Shown piece by piece: positions 1 to 52,295 of a DNA stretch of 52,295 bases. Below the pieces are notes generated by a model. That model ran no database searches, had not been told where the DNA came from, and was given only the letters and a program-made list of their open reading frames with translations. A program made the position numbers and the translations under genes. Source of the stretch: a virus. The stretch covers positions 1 to 52,295 of IMG/VR virus record IMGVR_UViG_3300003154_000003; one strand, 5' to 3'. Each line of letters begins with the position of its first letter. The stretch's first letter is position 1.

Positions 1-22
1 AAATAATATTATTTTTCCCTAT
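1..22. repeat. Terminal direct repeat, identical to 52274-52295 (circular closure or terminal redundancy)
   Basis: aaataatattatttttccctat occurs at both window ends. The match cannot be followed further because the window stops there. Confidence 0.9.
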
Positions 23-68
23 AATATAATATATAGGGAAAATTTGGCTAAAATCTTCGAAAATATAT
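1..68. promoter_or_regulatory. Right part of the 80-bp concentric palindromic element L1 (origin-like); the left part is 52260-52295
   Basis: Inner arms are ttttccctat (13-22) and atagggaaaa (33-42). The outer arm tcttcgaaaatatat (54-68) is the reverse complement of 52260-52274. After joining the ends through the 22-nt overlap, both arm pairs share the symmetry centre 27.5. Confidence 0.6.
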
Positions 69-6821: not shown

Positions 6822-7730
6822 TTATTCCTCCACGTTATCGGTTTCGTCGTCATCATCCTTAACGGTGCAAGCACCGCGGGTTATGTACTCCGCGGCCTTT
6901 GCAGCCCTTCCGGCAGCCCAAACGATAAGCTTCTTATCGTTCTGTAACTTTTCAAGCCACCCAACAATATAAGCGCTGTTTATATCGAAAGTTTCTTCGG
7001 CAATCTCCGCGCCCATCATACCAAGCAGTATAGACGCGCCCATTTCGGCTACAAGTTCTTCGCGGCTGTATGATTCACTTGCGAAAACGTGGTCATCGCC
7101 GTCTATTGCAAAACGGTTTAGACGCTTTGGATGTCCGGTGCTGTGGGTCATTTCGTGAAACATGGCACTATAATATAGTTCCGGCTTTTCGAACTTGTTT
7201 ATTTCCGGCACATTAACCTTGTCCAAAACCTCGCAGTAGTAAGCACCATCATCATAGTGTGTTACTTCCTTAAGTTCCTTAGAGTACAGTTCAACCACAT
7301 TTTCACATTCCTTAATAAGTTCATGCTTAACTGTGCTCTGCTTGCTCTCAATCCCTTCAACCTGCGAGATGTGGAACACATAGTAATATCTAAGCATTGG
7401 AATCCTGACAACTTCCGGGTTTCCATCCTTATCCTTCTTATCGGTCTTCTTTTCAAGCATCTTGAAGTATGTTATAAGGTGTCCGTGCTCTCCCTTCTTA
7501 ACACTTCCTCCGGCCTGCTGTGCCTGCTTGAATGTCATGTATTCGCCACCACCCGGCAGCATGAATAGATTGATACCATGATAAGGCTTTTGTGTAACCC
7601 AATTAACGGGCATACCTTCCGTCCATGTTCTGCGCCACGGTATAACGCCCGTTTCCAAAGCCTTAATCATTCTCTCAGTGACGATTTGGTAAACGTCTAC
7701 CGCCTTGTTGTTGTTGGTCTTTGTTGTCAT
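6822..7730 (-). CDS. ardC: ArdC-like protein: N-terminal ssDNA-binding domain plus C-terminal zincin metalloprotease
   Basis: The N-terminus reads VIPWRRTW...NWVTQKPYHGINLFML, which matches the ArdC/DUF1738 pattern. The C-terminal half contains the HExxH motif FHEMTHSTGH. AGGAGG lies upstream of the ATG. Confidence 0.6.
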   Translation of the reverse strand: MTTKTNNNKAVDVYQIVTERMIKALETGVIPWRRTWTEGMPVNWVTQKPYHGINLFMLPGGGEYMTFKQAQQAGGSVKKGEHGHLITYFKMLEKKTDKKDKDGNPEVVRIPMLRYYYVFHISQVEGIESKQSTVKHELIKECENVVELYSKELKEVTHYDDGAYYCEVLDKVNVPEINKFEKPELYYSAMFHEMTHSTGHPKRLNRFAIDGDDHVFASESYSREELVAEMGASILLGMMGAEIAEETFDINSAYIVGWLEKLQNDKKLIVWAAGRAAKAAEYITRGACTVKDDDDETDNVEE

Positions 7731-9954: not shown

Positions 9955-10216
9955 TCCACATTTTATCTTGCTTTGCCATGTCCTGATTTATGCGCCTTAG
10001 TCTGTTTCCGGCGGCCTTTATGACTTCCTGAATCCTCATAAAGACTTCGGGCGGTTTTACTTCCCCGACCTTAAGAACCACATGGATATTATCATTTGTG
10101 ATAATAACCAATTCGTCCGGCACACCATCCACCATAAACACGGCGGGCGCTCCGCACTGCACATAGGCAACTGGCAACTTACTTAAAGGCAATGCTTTAA
10201 CGCTTATTACCTTCAT
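9926..10216 (-). CDS. hypothetical protein, 96 aa
   Basis: Track ORF; first sizeable gene after element A2. Confidence 0.5.
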   Translation of the reverse strand: MKVISVKALPLSKLPVAYVQCGAPAVFMVDGVPDELVIITNDNIHVVLKVGEVKPPEVFMRIQEVIKAAGNRLRRINQDMAKQDKMWIGRKYTFKT

Positions 10217-10353
10217 AGCAAAGTTTTTTTCTTCGTCTATTACATGTTCATACTGTACTTTTATTGTCGTTTCAATGCCCCCATTTTATTACATTTTGGG
10301 ATACTCTCTTTTAATACGCCGGATAATATAAACCTTTCTGTATGTCAACCAAC

Positions 10354-10425
10354 ATCATTTCAATTTAAAGCCACTTTTTAAGCCCGTGGAGAGGTCAGTA
10401 TATAAATGGTGGTGTATTCATATTA
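10354..10425 (-). promoter_or_regulatory. Conserved promoter/leader element A, copy 2
   Basis: Near-identical to A1 and A4. The minus strand has TTTATATA at 10406-10399. The conserved ATG at 10358 opens a 15-codon uORF (MMLVDIQKGLYYPAY). Confidence 0.6.
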
Positions 10426-10657
10426 AACCCCATGTGAAATTAGCACGGCGGGGCAAATCCGGCAAACCTGCACGGGCTAAAAGGGCCTGATATATCTAGC
10501 AAAAAAGCGCTTAATCCAAAGCATCTTATTTTAATATTTTATTTTTTATCTGAAAAATGTAATGTATGAGAATTTATTAAAATTTATTTGAGTCAGTAAA
10601 CGCATGAAGTTTTTATAAAAGATGGCATCCAACAGATAAAACAGTTTTCTTTTATTT

Positions 10658-10737
10658 TATATTTTCGAAGAAATATACAAAAAAGTCCCAATAATATAAA
10701 GTATATGGACAAATTAAACAATTTCTTCGAAAATATA
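10658..10737. repeat. 80-bp concentric palindromic element L2 (origin-like), paralogue of the junction element L1
   Basis: The perfect 17-bp arms TATATTTTCGAAGAAAT (10658-10674) and ATTTCTTCGAAAATATA (10721-10737) flank an imperfect inner dyad, gtcc..ggac (10685-10710), with the same centre (10697.5). An ungapped alignment to L1 gives 59 of 80 identities. The element lies in the most AT-rich intergenic stretch. Confidence 0.65.
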
Positions 10738-10892
10738 ATTATGTATTTATGAGCAATCAACAGATTAAAATAGGATAAAATCATTTATATGATTGCAAGT
10801 ATGAGGATATTATAATGATACCCCGGATTGTGGCCGGGGTGGAATAATATAGTTTCATGCTGCTATCTCAAATCTATAAATCCGTGGGTCTA

Positions 10893-10946
10893 ATATCGGC
10901 GGTGGGGTTTTTCCTCCTGTTTTCCCTAACGCCAAACCGCCGATAT
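10893..10946. terminator. Hairpin just downstream of the last tail gene (possible terminator)
   Basis: The arms atatcggcggt (10893-10903) and accgccgatat (10936-10946) form an 11-bp perfect stem with a 32-nt loop. On the plus strand it is followed by attttttatt. The long loop lowers confidence. Confidence 0.3.
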
Positions 10947-10955
10947 ATTTTTTAT

Positions 10956-12083
10956 TTAAGATATAAAATTCTGTTTTTGTGCCATCATTTGATTTTCTAT
11001 AAATGATAATATTTCGCCATATGTGGGTATATAGCTACCTAATTCCAGCCGGGTTTTATATCCGCTCTCGTCTATTTCATGCGTCACCCTATACACATAT
11101 AAGTTTGCTCCAAACGTATTACCATTGATAACCATCGACGGCACCTTACAATAAACCAAATCCCCGGCTTCGGCTTGCGTTGTCATTTCTAACGTGCATA
11201 CCCCGGATACTAAAGGCAATTGGTGTATATCGAATATAGAAGATGCAAGCCGGGCGCATAGTTCATTTGTTTCTATACTCCGGTCAATATCTAAAATGTC
11301 TTTGTCTCCTATGCCCCCCGTAACCCTTGCGTATTTTTGTACGGTTTCGTCATTACCGTATACGGTTACGGACCGGGCCATTTCTGTTACATCTACAATA
11401 AATTCAGAATCAACGTAGTTACGGGCACCCTCAACCACTTTATATTTATCGGTTGGGGTGGTCGGTAATGGTTGCCAGCTTGCGACGCAATCAACTAAAT
11501 TGTTATCAGCGTCATAAATAGGAATTGTTTTAAATGAGTATGTTAGAAGTTCCGCCTTTTCTAAAAACTTGATAACATCTTTAACATATTTAGTGTCTGC
11601 TTCAATGTTATAACTATCTAAAACTGTGCCGTTAGTGTCTATTAATGATGGATATTGCTCATGTATTCTATATAGTTCCGGCAGGATGGTTTTTAGAATT
11701 AGCCCGGTGCTGGCATCGGCAAACGAATAAGAATTTTTAATAAGTCTGTTGACCAATTCTACCCCGTGCCCGTGTGCCGTAATTGTTATCTGGTTGTCTG
11801 TTGCCTCGGATTTAGCACGCATTACTTTTATAATGCCGCTAAATATTTCACGCCATCTGTAAAGCCGGTTACGTGAATCTTCGTTTGCCTGAACCCGGAT
11901 AATATCGCCGGTCCTCATGCCACTTATAAAACTTTTCCCATCTATCCGGGCCCCGATTGTTAATGTTACTTCGGCGGTGTCTGCTTGCCACGGGAAAGTT
12001 TTTGTAATAGTTGCCCGGGATAACTTCGGGTAATATTTTTCATATGGGTAAACAGTATGCTGTGTTATTATTCTAAATTCCAT
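10956..12083 (-). CDS. distal tail / baseplate protein, 375 aa
   Basis: Track ORF; last gene of the tail module. GGGTGA lies upstream of the ATG. The call rests on position only. Confidence 0.45.
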   Translation of the reverse strand: MEFRIITQHTVYPYEKYYPKLSRATITKTFPWQADTAEVTLTIGARIDGKSFISGMRTGDIIRVQANEDSRNRLYRWREIFSGIIKVMRAKSEATDNQITITAHGHGVELVNRLIKNSYSFADASTGLILKTILPELYRIHEQYPSLIDTNGTVLDSYNIEADTKYVKDVIKFLEKAELLTYSFKTIPIYDADNNLVDCVASWQPLPTTPTDKYKVVEGARNYVDSEFIVDVTEMARSVTVYGNDETVQKYARVTGGIGDKDILDIDRSIETNELCARLASSIFDIHQLPLVSGVCTLEMTTQAEAGDLVYCKVPSMVINGNTFGANLYVYRVTHEIDESGYKTRLELGSYIPTYGEILSFIENQMMAQKQNFIS

Positions 12084-35061: not shown

Positions 35062-38000
35062 TTAAGATACATCTGCGTACAATGAAAACCTTTCAGATTC
35101 CGCGCCGTACAAACCACACCACGCCCACAGCGTCACGTTTTCGCCGGGTGCCAGTGCAGTATTAACCGCCTGTGGAGTAGAACTTAGTTTAATGCTATCT
35201 GCCCCCTTTATCGGGTCATTGTCTACCCATATATCTATCGTGGCGGGTGTGTCCCGGTCAAGATATAAATACGGTGTTCCGCTACTTCCCCCGGTGTTGG
35301 TTATTTTCAATGTCGGCTGTGTGCTGTTTTGTGCATAGTTCGGCACCAAGTTAGCCCACCAAAACGCATCAAAGTATAAATAATCCAATGCGTCCCCTGT
35401 ATACCACATTTCGCCGTCCCAATATTGGAACCCATCAATAGGTGGTATTGTGAACCCGAAATTATAATACTTCGATTCTCCGGCGGACTGTGGGCCGGTT
35501 GTAATGGTTATTACTCCATCGTTCTTAACATATTCTGCATTGGTGTTATTTGTACTGAATGAGTTTACAGCGACGCCGTTAAACCGTCTGTCGGCAAGGG
35601 TATATATAATAGTTCCGTTCGTGCTGTCTAATAGCACATCTTGAACCATTGAAACATTTAATTGCCCGCTTGCCCTTGTTTCCTCGGTGGTTAAATCGGT
35701 GTCGTTGAACGTCATCAAAGCGGATACGTCGAACGTAGATAAATTATATGCCGAAAATACCAATTGTGTAAGGTTTCCCATACCATGTGGTAAGCTTACC
35801 GGGTTGTCTGCTACGCTGTCCCACTGATTAGACCACGCACCCAAACCATAGAACCTTATATATTTGTTCACAGTGTCGGTTATGGTAACATTACCACTTA
35901 CCAGATAAGCACCTGTATAAGTTTGTGACAATGTAAAGGGCGTTGTATAATTCATATCGTTAGCGGTTTCGGTATAATATCCACTGTATCCGGTTTTTGG
36001 TACTTCGTAATAATCCGGTTCGCCGTCTTCCCCGTCTTCCAGTACTTCAACCGACCATTCATAACTATCTGATTCCGCGCCTTCAATGACATATAGCATT
36101 ATGGTATAGTACCCGGATGGCATACCTGTACCCCATGTGTATGAGTCACTGGTTGCACCTATTGCCGTATTTCCTGCAATGCCGTTATAATACCAATAGT
36201 AATTAGCTGCTTTATTGGTGCTCGCGCTGAATGTTCTTGTACTATTGTGCGGCAAGGTTGTACTAGCTGCCGGGCTGGTTTCGATAATGTTCAATGTTTC
36301 CGGTTCATATATGGTAATTTCCCACTCCACAAAATCGTCGTCGGTTTCCGCTCTAACCGTATATGTGCCGTTTGTTGTTGAAACGAAATCATATCCGGCT
36401 GCGTATCCCGGGGCGGCTGTTGTGTCGGTTTCCCTTAAGTTTCCGTCAACCTTCCACACAACGGATGTATTCGTATTTGTGGTAACATTAAAAGCTTTTA
36501 TGGTGTTCTTCGGCCAGCTAAATGATGCTGTACCGGGTGCATAGCTTTCTATTGTCTTCGGATTTGGTGCGGTTGCATATATGCTCAATTTCGGGGCTCT
36601 TGATGCATTACCGTTTTCTGAACTGTAGAAAGCTATATAATTATCGTGCTCGTTTCCAGCTTTCAGGAAAAATCCCTTGTTATACTGCGGATACGTTGCA
36701 AAAGATTGTACCAAGTCGGTTACATCTATCGATATATACCCATTTATGGGTATGTCTTCCGCGTTTATGGTATAATTACCGAATGGATACCCCGGCGGTT
36801 CGCTGGTTGGATTTACATAATTTAAGGTGTTTTGATAATCTCCGCCCGGATACGTCCACGCTGCCCCGGTTAATCTACTGTTCCAAGTTACCTGTGATTG
36901 TGTCCACGATTCGGCAGGAACAACTTTATATACTTTTATATCAGTGTCGTTGTTCCTTGTAACCCCGGCCGGATAATACCACCACAAATCAAGGGTAGCA
37001 TATCCAATATCCTCCGGGTCATAGCTGGTTAAATTGAAATACAGCAAATCCCTATAAACTGCACCGGTTGACGCAATTTGTCCCAAGTCTAAATAAGTGC
37101 CCGTTCCGAAATTACTATCGGGTGTAGTTGATTTTATACGTGAATCGGCAACTGTAACCGGTGCTTCCGGCGGGGTTTCGTTGCCAACCGTTACGGATGC
37201 ATAATAATATGTTGAACCTTCTGCATTGGTCAGTGTTAATGTGTAGGTTGTGCTTGCGGTTGGATATACCGCAACGGCTCCGCCGGATACCGGGGTAACG
37301 GCACCCACGCCGGAAATTGAAGCGCTTACCGCGTTGGTACTCGTCCAAATTAAATTAGACGATTCCCCGGCGGTTATACTGGTCGGGTTTGCCGTAAACG
37401 TTCCATACGGATACACGGCCCCACTGGCAGACTTTGACGCTTCGGCGGTGTTACCATACCGGCCGATATTTGCACGCGCACCGTTTGGCTGTGGCTCGAG
37501 ACTATAGGGCATTGTAGCCTTGCCGGTATCTATGCATATACTGTTAACCGTGTCGGCTGTCCATGTGCTCCCTGTCCACCGGCCCGCCGTGCTCTTAAGA
37601 TGATAATCCCGGGACCCATAGGCGCCCGTCATAAGATAAACCGCGGGGTCGCCGTGAATGTTATTAGTCATTGTAAACCCGCCGGACCCGCTGGCGCTGT
37701 ACGTATCCCCTACGTTATTATAGAAACAATTATTCTCTACAACAAAATGATTTCTTGGGAATATGTTAGCAATACCATACCCGGAATTAGTATAACCGGT
37801 TGGAGTTAGGGCGGTATTCATTATAATATTATTTCTAACGTAAGTTGTGTAACTGACCCCGCTTGCCGGTCGGATGTCTCTTTCTTCCCACGCTATAGCC
37901 TGTTGCCCGCAGTCATCGAAAACATTGTGCTCGATACGTGTATTTTGGAAATTCATTATTGAGATACCACTATTTGAATAACCATTATCTGAGTAGTGAC

Positions 38001-38985
38001 CCGTATAAGTAAAGGTGTTGTGGTGTATATAAACACCTTCGCCGTGTACGGTTGTGTCCGATGTGCCCCCGCTCGCGTGTGATAACCAAATACCGGAAGC
38101 GTAACCGTTATAAAATTTATTATTATTGACTTCAATGTCATTAAAATACGGACTTGTTGCGCTGCTTCCTATCTGCACGAGCGGGCCGCTATACGCCCCG
38201 CCGATACTGCTATAAAAAACATTGTTTCTTACATCGGCGTGCTGTATACCATCTGACAGCCTAACACATGAATTTGTACGGCTCTTAAGCACGTTATTTT
38301 CAACAAGTACATATTCGGCCGTCAGGAAATAAAAACATTCGTGCCCCAATTCCCACGCTGTATTATTTGTAATAGTGATATGGTCCGATGTTCTTATATT
38401 CATTCCGTCAATGTCACCGTACTGCATGTGTGTATTATCTATAGTCAGATATGACACATCATTAAACTGTACTAAAATATTCCCGCTGTCGCCTAAAGAG
38501 GTGTCTTGTGGGTGTCCACCGTCTAGGGTTATGTTCCTAATTGCTATATGGTTAGCACCGTTAACAGCATCAATCAAATTTAACCCGGTCGTGGACCGTG
38601 CGGCACTTGTAAATGTTATTACGGCGTCCTCGTCGCCGCTTAGAGTTATACCAGTGTTTGGCCCCACTATTTCAGATGGAACATAATAAGTATGCGGTCC
38701 TTTAAGATATACCGTAGTATACCCGCTCGCTTTGTTGTTATAAGCATAAGCAAGGGCATTAGTAATCATTGTGTGGTCCGTGCTGCTTGATAGCGTGCCC
38801 GTACATGTGTAAGTTGTGCCCCCGGCCGTATCTCCGGCATTGCCTGTATAACCAACGTACAAAACGGGCGGGGCTGCGGCGCCTGACCCGGCGGGGTGTA
38901 ATACTAATACGCTTATCGCAAGCAGTAGCAAAACACCATAAAATAGTTTACTAAAAGTATCAATCGGACCGGTCTTAAAATTCAT
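35062..38985 (-). CDS. secreted multidomain beta-helix glycanase-like protein (disaggregatase-like) with a DNRLRE-type segment and Ig-like repeats, 1307 aa
   Basis: The N-terminal signal or anchor reads FYGVLLLLAISVLVLHPAGSGAAA. PbH1-type rungs are present (ITITNNTAWE, VLVENNVLKS, VRNNVFYSS, IHHNTFTY, IEHNVFDD, VVENNCFYNN). The segment ADSRIKSTTPDSNFGTGTYLDLG...LLYFNL...VTWNSR resembles the DNRLRE domain. Two repeats of about 65 aa belong to the same type as those in 21361-23598. Confidence 0.6.
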   Translation of the reverse strand: MNFKTGPIDTFSKLFYGVLLLLAISVLVLHPAGSGAAAPPVLYVGYTGNAGDTAGGTTYTCTGTLSSSTDHTMITNALAYAYNNKASGYTTVYLKGPHTYYVPSEIVGPNTGITLSGDEDAVITFTSAARSTTGLNLIDAVNGANHIAIRNITLDGGHPQDTSLGDSGNILVQFNDVSYLTIDNTHMQYGDIDGMNIRTSDHITITNNTAWELGHECFYFLTAEYVLVENNVLKSRTNSCVRLSDGIQHADVRNNVFYSSIGGAYSGPLVQIGSSATSPYFNDIEVNNNKFYNGYASGIWLSHASGGTSDTTVHGEGVYIHHNTFTYTGHYSDNGYSNSGISIMNFQNTRIEHNVFDDCGQQAIAWEERDIRPASGVSYTTYVRNNIIMNTALTPTGYTNSGYGIANIFPRNHFVVENNCFYNNVGDTYSASGSGGFTMTNNIHGDPAVYLMTGAYGSRDYHLKSTAGRWTGSTWTADTVNSICIDTGKATMPYSLEPQPNGARANIGRYGNTAEASKSASGAVYPYGTFTANPTSITAGESSNLIWTSTNAVSASISGVGAVTPVSGGAVAVYPTASTTYTLTLTNAEGSTYYYASVTVGNETPPEAPVTVADSRIKSTTPDSNFGTGTYLDLGQIASTGAVYRDLLYFNLTSYDPEDIGYATLDLWWYYPAGVTRNNDTDIKVYKVVPAESWTQSQVTWNSRLTGAAWTYPGGDYQNTLNYVNPTSEPPGYPFGNYTINAEDIPINGYISIDVTDLVQSFATYPQYNKGFFLKAGNEHDNYIAFYSSENGNASRAPKLSIYATAPNPKTIESYAPGTASFSWPKNTIKAFNVTTNTNTSVVWKVDGNLRETDTTAAPGYAAGYDFVSTTNGTYTVRAETDDDFVEWEITIYEPETLNIIETSPAASTTLPHNSTRTFSASTNKAANYYWYYNGIAGNTAIGATSDSYTWGTGMPSGYYTIMLYVIEGAESDSYEWSVEVLEDGEDGEPDYYEVPKTGYSGYYTETANDMNYTTPFTLSQTYTGAYLVSGNVTITDTVNKYIRFYGLGAWSNQWDSVADNPVSLPHGMGNLTQLVFSAYNLSTFDVSALMTFNDTDLTTEETRASGQLNVSMVQDVLLDSTNGTIIYTLADRRFNGVAVNSFSTNNTNAEYVKNDGVITITTGPQSAGESKYYNFGFTIPPIDGFQYWDGEMWYTGDALDYLYFDAFWWANLVPNYAQNSTQPTLKITNTGGSSGTPYLYLDRDTPATIDIWVDNDPIKGADSIKLSSTPQAVNTALAPGENVTLWAWCGLYGAESERFSLYADVS

Positions 38986-40443: not shown

Positions 40444-40737
40444 TTAATCCACCCCGTCATATTTGAACTTCAATCTTTCCGGGTGCTCTGCTTTATGGCA
40501 AGCAATACAAAGCACCTCAATATTTGTACTTGTCCAATTCTTTATGTTTCGGTCTATGTGGTGTAGATGCATGTCACCTACTGCCCCGCACCGTTCACAC
40601 AAATCTAGCCGCCGCCCGCTTGCCTTCACCACGGCACGCGCACGGTAAAAACACGCTCTCCGGGTATTTGGTATATAATCGCTTATACATTCCCACACCC
40701 CGGGCGCAGTTTCAACAATGTCATTATTTCCACACAT
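40444..40737 (-). CDS. HNH endonuclease, 97 aa
   Basis: CERCGAVGDMHLHHIDRNIKNWTSTNIEVLCIACHKAEH is a classical HNH motif. I trimmed the ORF to the ATG at 40737, which is preceded by AGAGG. Confidence 0.75.
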   Translation of the reverse strand: MCGNNDIVETAPGVWECISDYIPNTRRACFYRARAVVKASGRRLDLCERCGAVGDMHLHHIDRNIKNWTSTNIEVLCIACHKAEHPERLKFKYDGVD

Positions 40738-40823
40738 AATAAAGCCTCTTGTTATGGTTAAGTTTATGTAATCCAAACTATATAAGCATTTCATTAGTTG
40801 AAAATGAATATAGTTACATGTGA

Positions 40824-41357
40824 CTAAAACCCGCGCATCTTGCACTCTTCATTTAATGAACGGGACCCGCGCCACTTGTTGAAATTTGCCCGGCGCTTCT
40901 TACTAAAATTTGTTACATATATAATACTCTGGCCTTCTATGAGCAATTGATGCACAGCAAGCCGTTTAATACGTTTATTCAACTTGCTCCGGGCCGTATG
41001 AAATTCGGCAATCATGCACGTATATAAAAAACAGTAGAGCACTTCAACCGTGTCCGGGTCATGGTATTTATAAGCCAAGTCCTTAATAAGTGTCAATACT
41101 TCCGGGTTAACGGTGTCCGTCGTGTTATCATATATTTTTACATAGTCGTTATATACCCGTTCCCGCCCGTGCTCTTCCGCCACCCCCTCGAGCACTTTGA
41201 AAATTTTATAATCTTTAGGACCATACCCGGATTTTATGGGTATGCACATACTGTTTTGCAAGGTGGCTTTTTGCGTTTTTAAGAAAATACACCATTCATC
41301 AAAGTCACCTTTATCAAAAAACATGTATCCGTGCCAGAATTTCGTTATTAGTTGCAT
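40824..41357 (-). CDS. hypothetical protein, 177 aa
   Basis: Track ORF on the coding strand. Confidence 0.5.
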   Translation of the reverse strand: MQLITKFWHGYMFFDKGDFDEWCIFLKTQKATLQNSMCIPIKSGYGPKDYKIFKVLEGVAEEHGRERVYNDYVKIYDNTTDTVNPEVLTLIKDLAYKYHDPDTVEVLYCFLYTCMIAEFHTARSKLNKRIKRLAVHQLLIEGQSIIYVTNFSKKRRANFNKWRGSRSLNEECKMRGF

Positions 41358-51308: not shown

Positions 51309-52295
51309 CTATTCATGCAGATTCAGCCACGCTTTATAAAAGCCCTCACAATTTTCTATAAGTGTGGTGGTCCTTACACTTGGCAACTCAATACTAATTA
51401 TAGATTCAACGTGATATAGCGACTCGTTGAAATTATAGTCCTTCTGACCCTTAAATAGTTCCGTAAGGGCTACGGGGTCCTTCATACCGGCATTGTAATA
51501 CTCGCGCACACAGTATATACGCAGGTTGTGCCCTTCCTCGCCCTCTAGCTGTTGGGTTAAAGCCCATTCAAAGAACGGCCGAACCTTTCCCGCTCTTACC
51601 TTCATATTCTCCGGCATGTCTACGGCCTCGCTGGCCTCTGCTGCTGGCTCTTTAAATTCAATTCCGCTTATATCGACTATGCCAATTTCCAACTCTGTAA
51701 AATCCTCGCACCATTCACCGTTTATTAAAATTGCTGATTTGTTTCCGGTCTTTCTGTGAGTAGCAAAAGGCAACTTGACAAGATTACCGTATCCTTTTTT
51801 ATCGGCAATCATCTGTTTAGGGTAAACTTCACATTTAACTTTAGCAGTTTTGATAATATGTTTACCGAATAATTTGGCCTGTTTTGCGGCTACCGGTTGC
51901 AATAATATCCAAATATGATATGAAAACGGCGAACCGGACCATTCGAGGATAAAGGGTATGCTTAACGATTTTAGCAAGTTACCAATTTTATTAACATTCT
52001 CGTCTGATTGCTGACATTTTAAATTATATTGACTGTCCGAATCCTCGGGCTTTCTATGAGCATCTATGTCAAAGCATACCCATTTTACCATGTTCCCGGG
52101 TCCTAATGTGTAGGCGCCAACTGTTATTTCACCGGATAAATGACGCTGCAATAGTTCTTCGTCAACTTTACCATTTTCTTTATAGTAACTTCCGCTAGAA
52201 ATTTGTAAAGCGTAAGCGTCCTCCCGTGCTATAAGTAACTGTAAAAAGTTACATCTATTATATATTTTCGAAGAAATAATATTATTTTTCCCTAT
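51309..52295 (-). CDS. archaeo-eukaryotic primase-polymerase (AEP/PrimPol) domain; 3-prime part of the wrap-around helicase-primpol ORF
   Basis: The track lists 51309-52151 from a TTG, but the frame stays open upstream to the window end. AEP motifs read: HLSGEITVGAYTL...WVCFDIDAH (motif I DxD), SGSPFSYHIWILL (motif II), EVYPKQ...GYGNLVKLPFATHRKTGNKS (motif III). Confidence 0.8.
   Translation of the reverse strand: MGKNNIISSKIYNRCNFLQLLIAREDAYALQISSGSYYKENGKVDEELLQRHLSGEITVGAYTLGPGNMVKWVCFDIDAHRKPEDSDSQYNLKCQQSDENVNKIGNLLKSLSIPFILEWSGSPFSYHIWILLQPVAAKQAKLFGKHIIKTAKVKCEVYPKQMIADKKGYGNLVKLPFATHRKTGNKSAILINGEWCEDFTELEIGIVDISGIEFKEPAAEASEAVDMPENMKVRAGKVRPFFEWALTQQLEGEEGHNLRIYCVREYYNAGMKDPVALTELFKGQKDYNFNESLYHVESIISIELPSVRTTTLIENCEGFYKAWLNLHE
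52260..52295. promoter_or_regulatory. Left part of the 80-bp concentric palindromic element L1
   Basis: atatattttcgaaga (52260-52274) is the exact reverse complement of 54-68. The stretch 52261-52277 is identical to the left arm of L2 (10658-10674). Confidence 0.6.
52274..52295. repeat. Terminal direct repeat, identical to 1-22
   Basis: Exact 22-nt match to the window start. Confidence 0.9.

Follow-up and report, generated by a model that had tools for sequence, protein, structure and literature searches.

The window analyzed here is the whole of IMG/VR record IMGVR_UViG_3300003154_000003, positions 1 to 52,295. Its first 22 bases (1-22) are identical to its last 22 (52274-52295), the longest exact overlap of the two ends, so the sequence represents a circular unit of 52,273 bp. 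Every gene of the circle is on the minus strand, and genes typical of tailed viruses are present (large terminase, tape-measure protein, SPP1-gp7-like head protein, and tail terminator). This is the genome of a tailed archaeal virus with a Methanosarcina-type host. Two observations point to this host, namely disaggregatase domains in a 1307 amino acid protein and the presence of replication-gene homologues in genomes of Methanolobus and Methanosarcina. In the 1307 amino acid protein (35062-38985, minus strand) the disaggregatase domains, of the Methanosarcina kind, accompany a beta-helix. This protein probably depolymerizes the methanochondroitin sheath and marks the host, and similar proteins are found in relatives.

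The genome also encodes an anti-restriction type protein that joins an ArdC-N domain to a zincin metallopeptidase (6822-7730, minus strand), an HNH endonuclease (40444-40845), and a DUF7004 protein (40824-41357). A big AT-rich non-coding gap of 740 bp (10216-10956) lies between the late and early modules. GC-rich stretches within it (near 10380-10500 and 10810-10960) look structured, and neither Rfam nor a tRNA scan gave a match in the gap. A search of GenBank phages returned only remote matches to Gordonia phage primases.

The replication gene is an open frame of 954 codons on the minus strand that runs from 1900 over the contig junction to 51312, with its stop codon at 51309-51311. The 5′ part (77-1900) encodes an XPD/DinG-like SF2 helicase with a cysteine cluster and the 3′ part (51309-52273) encodes an AEP PrimPol domain (approximately 51732-52172) followed by a C-terminal helical region. 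The helicase part makes up the N-terminal two-thirds of the protein; its best structural matches are XPD and DinG, its cysteine cluster is conserved, and in Pfam it has only a weak match to ResIII. Pfam also places an AEP-TOTE domain in the replication protein (4.5e-24), and the PrimPol part matches the CAPP PrimPol 7nqd in the PDB (5e-28) and 7p9j by Foldseek (4e-12). On these matches we predict that the protein is an XPD/DinG-like SF2 helicase fused to a CAPP-type AEP PrimPol. More than 80 homologues of about 950 amino acids each align over its whole length, which confirms that the frame is truly continuous where the circle closes.

The replication gene may use a non-canonical start codon. 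On the minus strand between 1900 and 1711 there is no in-frame ATG, GTG, or TTG ahead of the sequence MNRKEKF, whose methionine is near nucleotide 1711, and yet the 63 codons upstream of it encode a conserved helicase motif-I region (YKTTRAGATTALIAES) and are preceded by a strong TAAGGAGG. It is this combination that suggests an unusual start. The gene calls of the closest relatives (P0001, P0002, and P0006) are truncated in the same way.

Embedded in this frame, at the junction of the contig ends, is a two-tier palindrome that we refer to as palindrome A. Both of its arm pairs share an axis at 27.5. The outer left arm (52260-52274, ATATATTTTCGAAGA) is a perfect 15-bp complement of the outer right arm (54-68, TCTTCGAAAATATAT), and the inner left arm (13-23, TTTTCCCTATA) is a perfect 11-bp complement of the inner right arm (32-42, TATAGGGAAAA). 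Between the inner arms is a spacer or apical loop of 8 nt that consists only of A and T (24-31, ATATAATA). The terminal overlap of the contig (1-22, equal to 52274-52295) includes the internal-loop segment on the left side (2-12) and the greater part of the inner left arm.

The initial annotation had described a concentric double palindrome at this place, and in circular coordinates it is present exactly as described, including the axis and the 15-bp outer arms; the inner arms had been given as 10 bp and are 1 bp longer. The claim that the element is translated without a stop also holds, as the 954-codon frame passes through it on the minus strand (..IFPIYYIIGKNNIISSKIY..). Its proposed location in a linker between helicase and PrimPol agrees with the Pfam and structure matches and with the AF2 model, in which pLDDT is 40-50 over residues 551-567 (numbering of an 891 amino acid form) and above 80 in the flanks. 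These low-confidence inter-domain residues are encoded by 11-61 on the minus strand, which is the inner palindrome.

Palindrome A is far outside what the composition of the genome predicts. Not one of 200 genomes simulated with a first-order Markov model contained two concentric arms of at least 10 bp, and the expected number of 15-bp arms per genome is 0.005. Folded as DNA, the 106-nt element reaches -19.2 kcal/mol, compared with -6.8 ± 2.1 in local dinucleotide shuffles (z-score -5.9 to -6.3), and none of 200 shuffles folds as well. Symmetry along the genome is highest at this element, with 34 of 50 positions paired (genome mean 12.5, s.d. 3.2). Allowing up to one mismatch, the inner half-site matches the genome only at the two inverted arms, and there are no iterons or extra half-sites in the genome outside the palindromes.

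To place the element in a wider context, about 80 loci that encode homologues of the replication protein were collected, and their linker DNA was extracted. Pairing was profiled by distance from the axis in 44 dereplicated sequences; pair types were counted in the 43 sequences with a linker palindrome (L035 was excluded). A palindrome with two tiers, reaching about ±50 nt, occurs at the same axis and codon in 43 distinct homologues (approximately 30-55% amino acid identity; from Methanolobus and Methanosarcina genomes, metagenomes, and IMG/VR), in which the arm sequences vary and their complementarity is kept. The axis lies 9.5 nt after the first base of the proline codon of a P-I-Y-Y-I-I-G motif in nearly all homologues, and the center of the palindrome is conserved in sequence (consensus CCTATATATTATATTATAGGG). 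Arms measure, for example, 24 bp in L005, 16 and 14 bp in L012, and 15, 8, and 8 bp in L078. The homologues have 27-42 symmetric Watson-Crick pairs out of 60, against a background of 24 ± 2.1 for the best of 72 centers.

The pairing profile has the same tiers as palindrome A. Pairing is 84-90% at 6-15 nt from the axis (inner stem), 45-58% at 16-25 nt (internal loop), and 61-72% at 26-45 nt (outer stem), and it drops to a background of about 26% beyond 50 nt. Positions in the inner and outer stems have three to four pair types each, far above column-shuffle and slid controls. In alignment A2, 73.4% of the cells are paired, compared with 57.6 ± 0.8% after shuffling (a value reached in 0 of 500 shuffles) and 35-49% in slid controls. 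Cells in which both sides changed number 280, against 125 in the shuffled alignment, and the covariation score is 0.391, against 0.153 for shuffled (0 of 500) and 0.08-0.15 for slid controls.

Of 17 sequences folded as DNA, 13 have z-scores of -5.9 to -12.7 and one two-tier hairpin architecture; the other four are weaker or less uniform (among them L061 at -5.6, L074 at -3.9, and L059 at -3.4). RNAalifold on a MAFFT alignment recovers only the inner seven pairs because MAFFT loses the register of the outer arms, and axis-centered ungapped counting was used in its place. This covariation and the linkage to the gene show that palindrome A is a cis-acting DNA site under selection, and one that belongs with the replication gene.

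A few loci have features of their own. L062, L066, and L074 are three loci on a single 3.4-Mb contig of a Methanolobus MAG (NZ_CAXXKW010000002.1), each with a replication gene and its own variant of the palindrome. In L080 (7671-7799) and L020 (5738-5866), the left inner arm (AAATCTCCCTATA) is present once more in direct orientation some 47 nt upstream, within a linker insertion of 17 codons. A single-protein scan of IMG/VR found neither the window itself nor close relatives, and a search of IMG/VR with the 15-mer arm gave only unspecific chance matches.

The mismatches in the arms bear on the molecule under selection. Both G:T and A:C are rare in the arms and about equally frequent, with 5 G:T against 10 A:C cells in the inner tier and 43 against 46 in the outer tier. 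There is no excess of G:T on either strand, so both strands are equally constrained, and the alignments thus show a constraint that acts at the level of DNA and not of RNA. The effect extends to the protein, in which linker residues covary as reverse-complement codons: proline with glycine (CCC/GGG) and leucine with arginine (CTT/AAG). Further complementary pairs are leucine with serine (GCTTAT/ATAAGC) and serine with aspartate (TCTAT/ATAGA). By this codon-level pattern, the amino acids of the linker are largely dictated by the DNA of the palindrome.

The genome contains a second copy of the element, palindrome B (10657-10738, axis 10697.5), in the 740-bp gap between the late and early modules, in a regulatory region upstream of the early genes. 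It is the next-best palindrome of the genome and has the two-tier geometry of palindrome A, with perfect outer arms of 18 bp (10657-10674 and 10721-10738) and degenerate inner arms. The two palindromes have the arm sequence TATATTTTCGAAGAAAT in common, and the outer arm of A recurs only in B. The closest relative, L205 (55% identity), is arranged likewise, with one copy in the linker and another between genes 8.2 kb upstream (axis 3334.5), and both share arms that are particular to L205 and unlike those of the genome studied here. Arms that are the same within a genome and different between genomes argue for sequence-specific recognition in addition to symmetry. Within ±6-10 kb, most relatives have no second copy.

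The element is not confined to the linker. In L035 and L084 (36% identity) the linker is without a palindrome, and an element of the same architecture is in a 135-bp spacer just after the stop codon. In L051 (29% identity) the palindrome is likewise outside the linker, about 245 bp downstream of the gene; in L059 (25% identity) it is within the linker. The sites of L035/L084, L051, and L059 are recovered by a covariance model (R2) derived from the elements in linkers, as are sites in loci that were added later. The split-gene loci L211 and L212 were set aside because they look degraded or frameshifted and are not clean two-gene arrangements.

Some homologues are mosaic, with N-terminal and C-terminal halves of 92% versus 33% identity, or 55% versus 84%. 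Discordant helicase and primase halves are found in the pairs P0016/P0031, P0077/P0079, P0079/P0085, and P0080/P0082, and in L070 compared with L072. Several of the breakpoints fall close to the palindrome on its 5′ side, in the DNA some 80 nt away from the axis, and the palindrome is thus inherited with the primase half. Similarity of the outer arms tracks the primase half (beta 0.83) and similarity of the inner arms the helicase half (beta 0.43), values from pairs that are not independent and that carry no significance test.

One reading of the element is that it arose by chance or in the assembly. The region is AT-rich and is located at a contig junction, as would be expected of chance symmetry in AT-rich coding DNA or of an assembly artefact at the contig ends. 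This explanation has practically no probability left: neither the 200 simulated genomes nor the 200 local shuffles produced a match, and the palindrome recurs in isolate genomes and, in the interior of contigs, in many assemblies made independently. Chance symmetry was rejected on the simulations, the shuffles, and the conservation taken together. A stem-loop in the mRNA (for processing, ribosome pausing, or attenuation), or an internal archaeal promoter for a primase-only product, would account for the position at a domain boundary and for the center that resembles a TATA box (TATATATTATATTATA). We give this only a slight chance, because G:U is not favored among the non-Watson-Crick cells on either strand, intergenic equivalents exist (L035, L051, copy B, and copy B of L205), no conserved start codon follows the element, and a promoter would not need long covarying arms. 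A structured RNA was rejected on the missing G:U signature, the intergenic versions, and the empty Rfam and tRNA scans.

The initial annotation had also named a packaging or termini-related site, as the assembly breaks here. This would be a cos or pac site, or a concatemer-junction palindrome that is resolved to ends, at which the assembly opens. For a target of 100 bp in 52 kb, the probability that contig ends land inside it is about 0.2%, so the coincidence probably has a cause; the end overlap of just 22 bp and the HNH endonuclease encoded by the genome would also be in line with such a site. We nevertheless consider it very unlikely. The open frame crosses the junction, with its continuity confirmed by full-length homologues, the 22-bp overlap is off-center from the axis, the palindrome is present twice in the genome, and the large terminase gene is 20 kb away, while linkage to the primase gene holds at any distance from the terminase. 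The contigs of relatives end away from the palindrome, and the packaging alternative is unsupported for this assembly. A protelomerase target or hairpin telomere was rejected too, as no such enzyme was found among 41 proteins scanned with Pfam (10 of them also with PHROGs), no protein of protelomerase size gave a match, the frame runs over the axis, and there are two copies. Because the assemblies of relatives break elsewhere and the gene reads through the junction, we favor poor sequencing or assembly through an A/T-rich hairpin, rather than a physical end, as the cause of the break. A better contender, though still an unlikely one, is that the element is no origin and is bound instead by a symmetric protein of regulation or recombination, as would be an operator, a partition site, or a core site of the lox/FRT/dif kind. 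Its copies would then act together, for instance by looping or through inversion or excision of the 10.7-kb early region. With arms of 11 bp around 8 nt, the inner palindrome fits the layout of a tyrosine-recombinase core site (inverted arms of 11-13 bp about an A/T spacer of 8-10 bp; for lox, FRT, and dif sites the spacer is 6-8 bp). The two copies per genome with genome-specific arms imply sequence-specific recognition, copy B occupies a regulatory gap, and recombination breakpoints cluster next to the palindrome. Against this, Pfam recognizes no recombinase, integrase, ParB, or repressor among 41 proteins (a set that takes in nearly all those of the genome with at least 120 amino acids; 10 were also compared with PHROGs), and a site bound by a protein would not usually have arms that reach ±50 nt and covary freely. 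What stays constant across the family is that the element accompanies the primase gene, within it or immediately 3′, and not that it is positioned at a promoter. In the integrated copies of Methanolobus and Methanosarcina the gene is intact, so the site is not attP, and the arms differ among relatives of the same host genera, which speaks against a dif-type site.

We lean, with modest confidence, toward palindrome A as a cis element of the replication module, most probably a replication origin of the stem-loop or cruciform type. The argument for origin function is its linkage to the replication gene and an analogy with plasmid pRN1 (PMC4234260). The stem-loop of pRN1, about 100 nt long and 3′ of the primpol-helicase gene, is needed for replication and can be relocated (PMC4234260). 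Its structure is conserved and its sequence is not, and it has kin in pRN2, pSSVx, and pHEN7 (Berkner et al. 2014, PMC4234260). Specific binding of Rep to this stem-loop could not be demonstrated (PMC4234260). Similar stem-loops follow the primase-helicase genes of Bordetella phages BIP-1 and BPP-1, and have been proposed as origins (PMC4234260).

The element described here resembles that of pRN1 in several ways: it has the size of an extended stem-loop of about 100 nt, with pairing out to about ±50 nt, it is linked to an AEP primase-helicase gene, it keeps its structure and not its sequence, and it varies in position, which here is the linker or 3′ of the gene. It differs in that it is in frame inside the gene in this genome and about 40 homologues and 3′ only in L035/L084 and L051. 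The helicase here is N-terminal and of the XPD/DinG-like SF2 type, whereas that of pRN1 is C-terminal and SF3. Further differences are the fixed two-tier stem, the sequence-conserved A/T center, and the second copy in some genomes.

Origins within initiator genes are found in lambda (ori in O), SPP1 (oriL in gene 38, with a distant oriR), P2 (ori in A), and pT181 (ori in repC). The initial annotation had cited lambda as precedent, and the likeness holds for the location of a cis site in the reading frame of its own replication protein, in the part that codes for a linker; SPP1 is similar in its second, distant copy. The analogy with lambda is loose because direct iterons are missing here. In these four systems direct iterons or a nick site serve a sequence-specific initiator, in contrast to one long covarying palindrome without iterons.

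Palindromic origins are also known from herpesviruses (oriS and oriL, with the SF2 helicase UL9) and as the core origins of SV40 and papillomaviruses. All of these resemble the present element in an A/T-rich center between inverted recognition elements. Herpesviruses share with it, in addition, an SF2 helicase at the origin, an oriS that is recognized in hairpin form, and at least two copies per genome, but their origins are intergenic, and the helicase here matches XPD and DinG best. Phage P4 has ori plus crr and an alpha primase-helicase with origin repeats. It is comparable in combining a primase-helicase with two separated cis sites that share repeats and differs in its Toprim primase, SF3 helicase, and direct iterons. 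We know of no XPD/DinG-type helicase that acts as an origin-binding initiator, and literature searches returned no description of this palindrome element.

If palindrome A is an origin, the A/T-only center may melt in supercoiled or transiently unwound DNA, after which the two-tier palindrome would extrude or would be kept open by a symmetric protein assembly. The exposed single-stranded loops could then serve as the loading place for the 5′-3′ XPD/DinG-like helicase and as the template for priming by the fused PrimPol. The palindrome would be placed in the sole part of the gene that tolerates it, the flexible linker between the domains. Palindrome B may be a second origin or an auxiliary cis site that is read by the same recognizing factor.

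An origin or other protein-recognition site in the replication gene was the central proposal of the initial annotation. That the site is a selected cis-acting one is borne out by covariation in 43 homologues; initiation at palindrome A, the extrusion of a cruciform, and the identity of the recognizing protein are steps that we infer. The annotation had also suggested a skew analysis, which does not single out the junction. Since the genes all share one strand, GC skew is negative throughout the circle, and it does not switch at the junction. In third-codon-position skew the only sign changes are near 10-12 kb (from negative to positive, near copy B) and near 40 kb, and not at copy A. The extremes of the detrended and third-position skews are at boundaries between early and late modules, so skew is uninformative for copy A.

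More tentatively, palindrome A may be a translated origin. A cruciform-type origin that doubles as linker code could have been born when helicase and primase genes fused across or beside an origin. Recognition would be bipartite, in line with inner-arm similarity that follows the helicase half and outer-arm similarity that follows the primase half, the palindrome would mark a boundary for the shuffling of the two halves, and together with B it would form a two-site system. We regard this fuller scenario as speculative.

The element is a case of dual coding, in which DNA structure sets the residues of a protein linker, visible as the covariation of P with G, L with R, and L with S. It extends the association of AEP primases with stem-loops of about 100 nt, first seen in pRN1, to another helicase class and to the Euryarchaeota. 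We are aware of no replication origin described for the tailed viruses that infect methanogens. For a whole family of viruses and proviruses of Methanosarcina and Methanolobus, palindrome A offers an exactly located candidate that mutation can test, and the palindrome with its gene could give a compact rep-plus-ori cassette for methanogen vectors.
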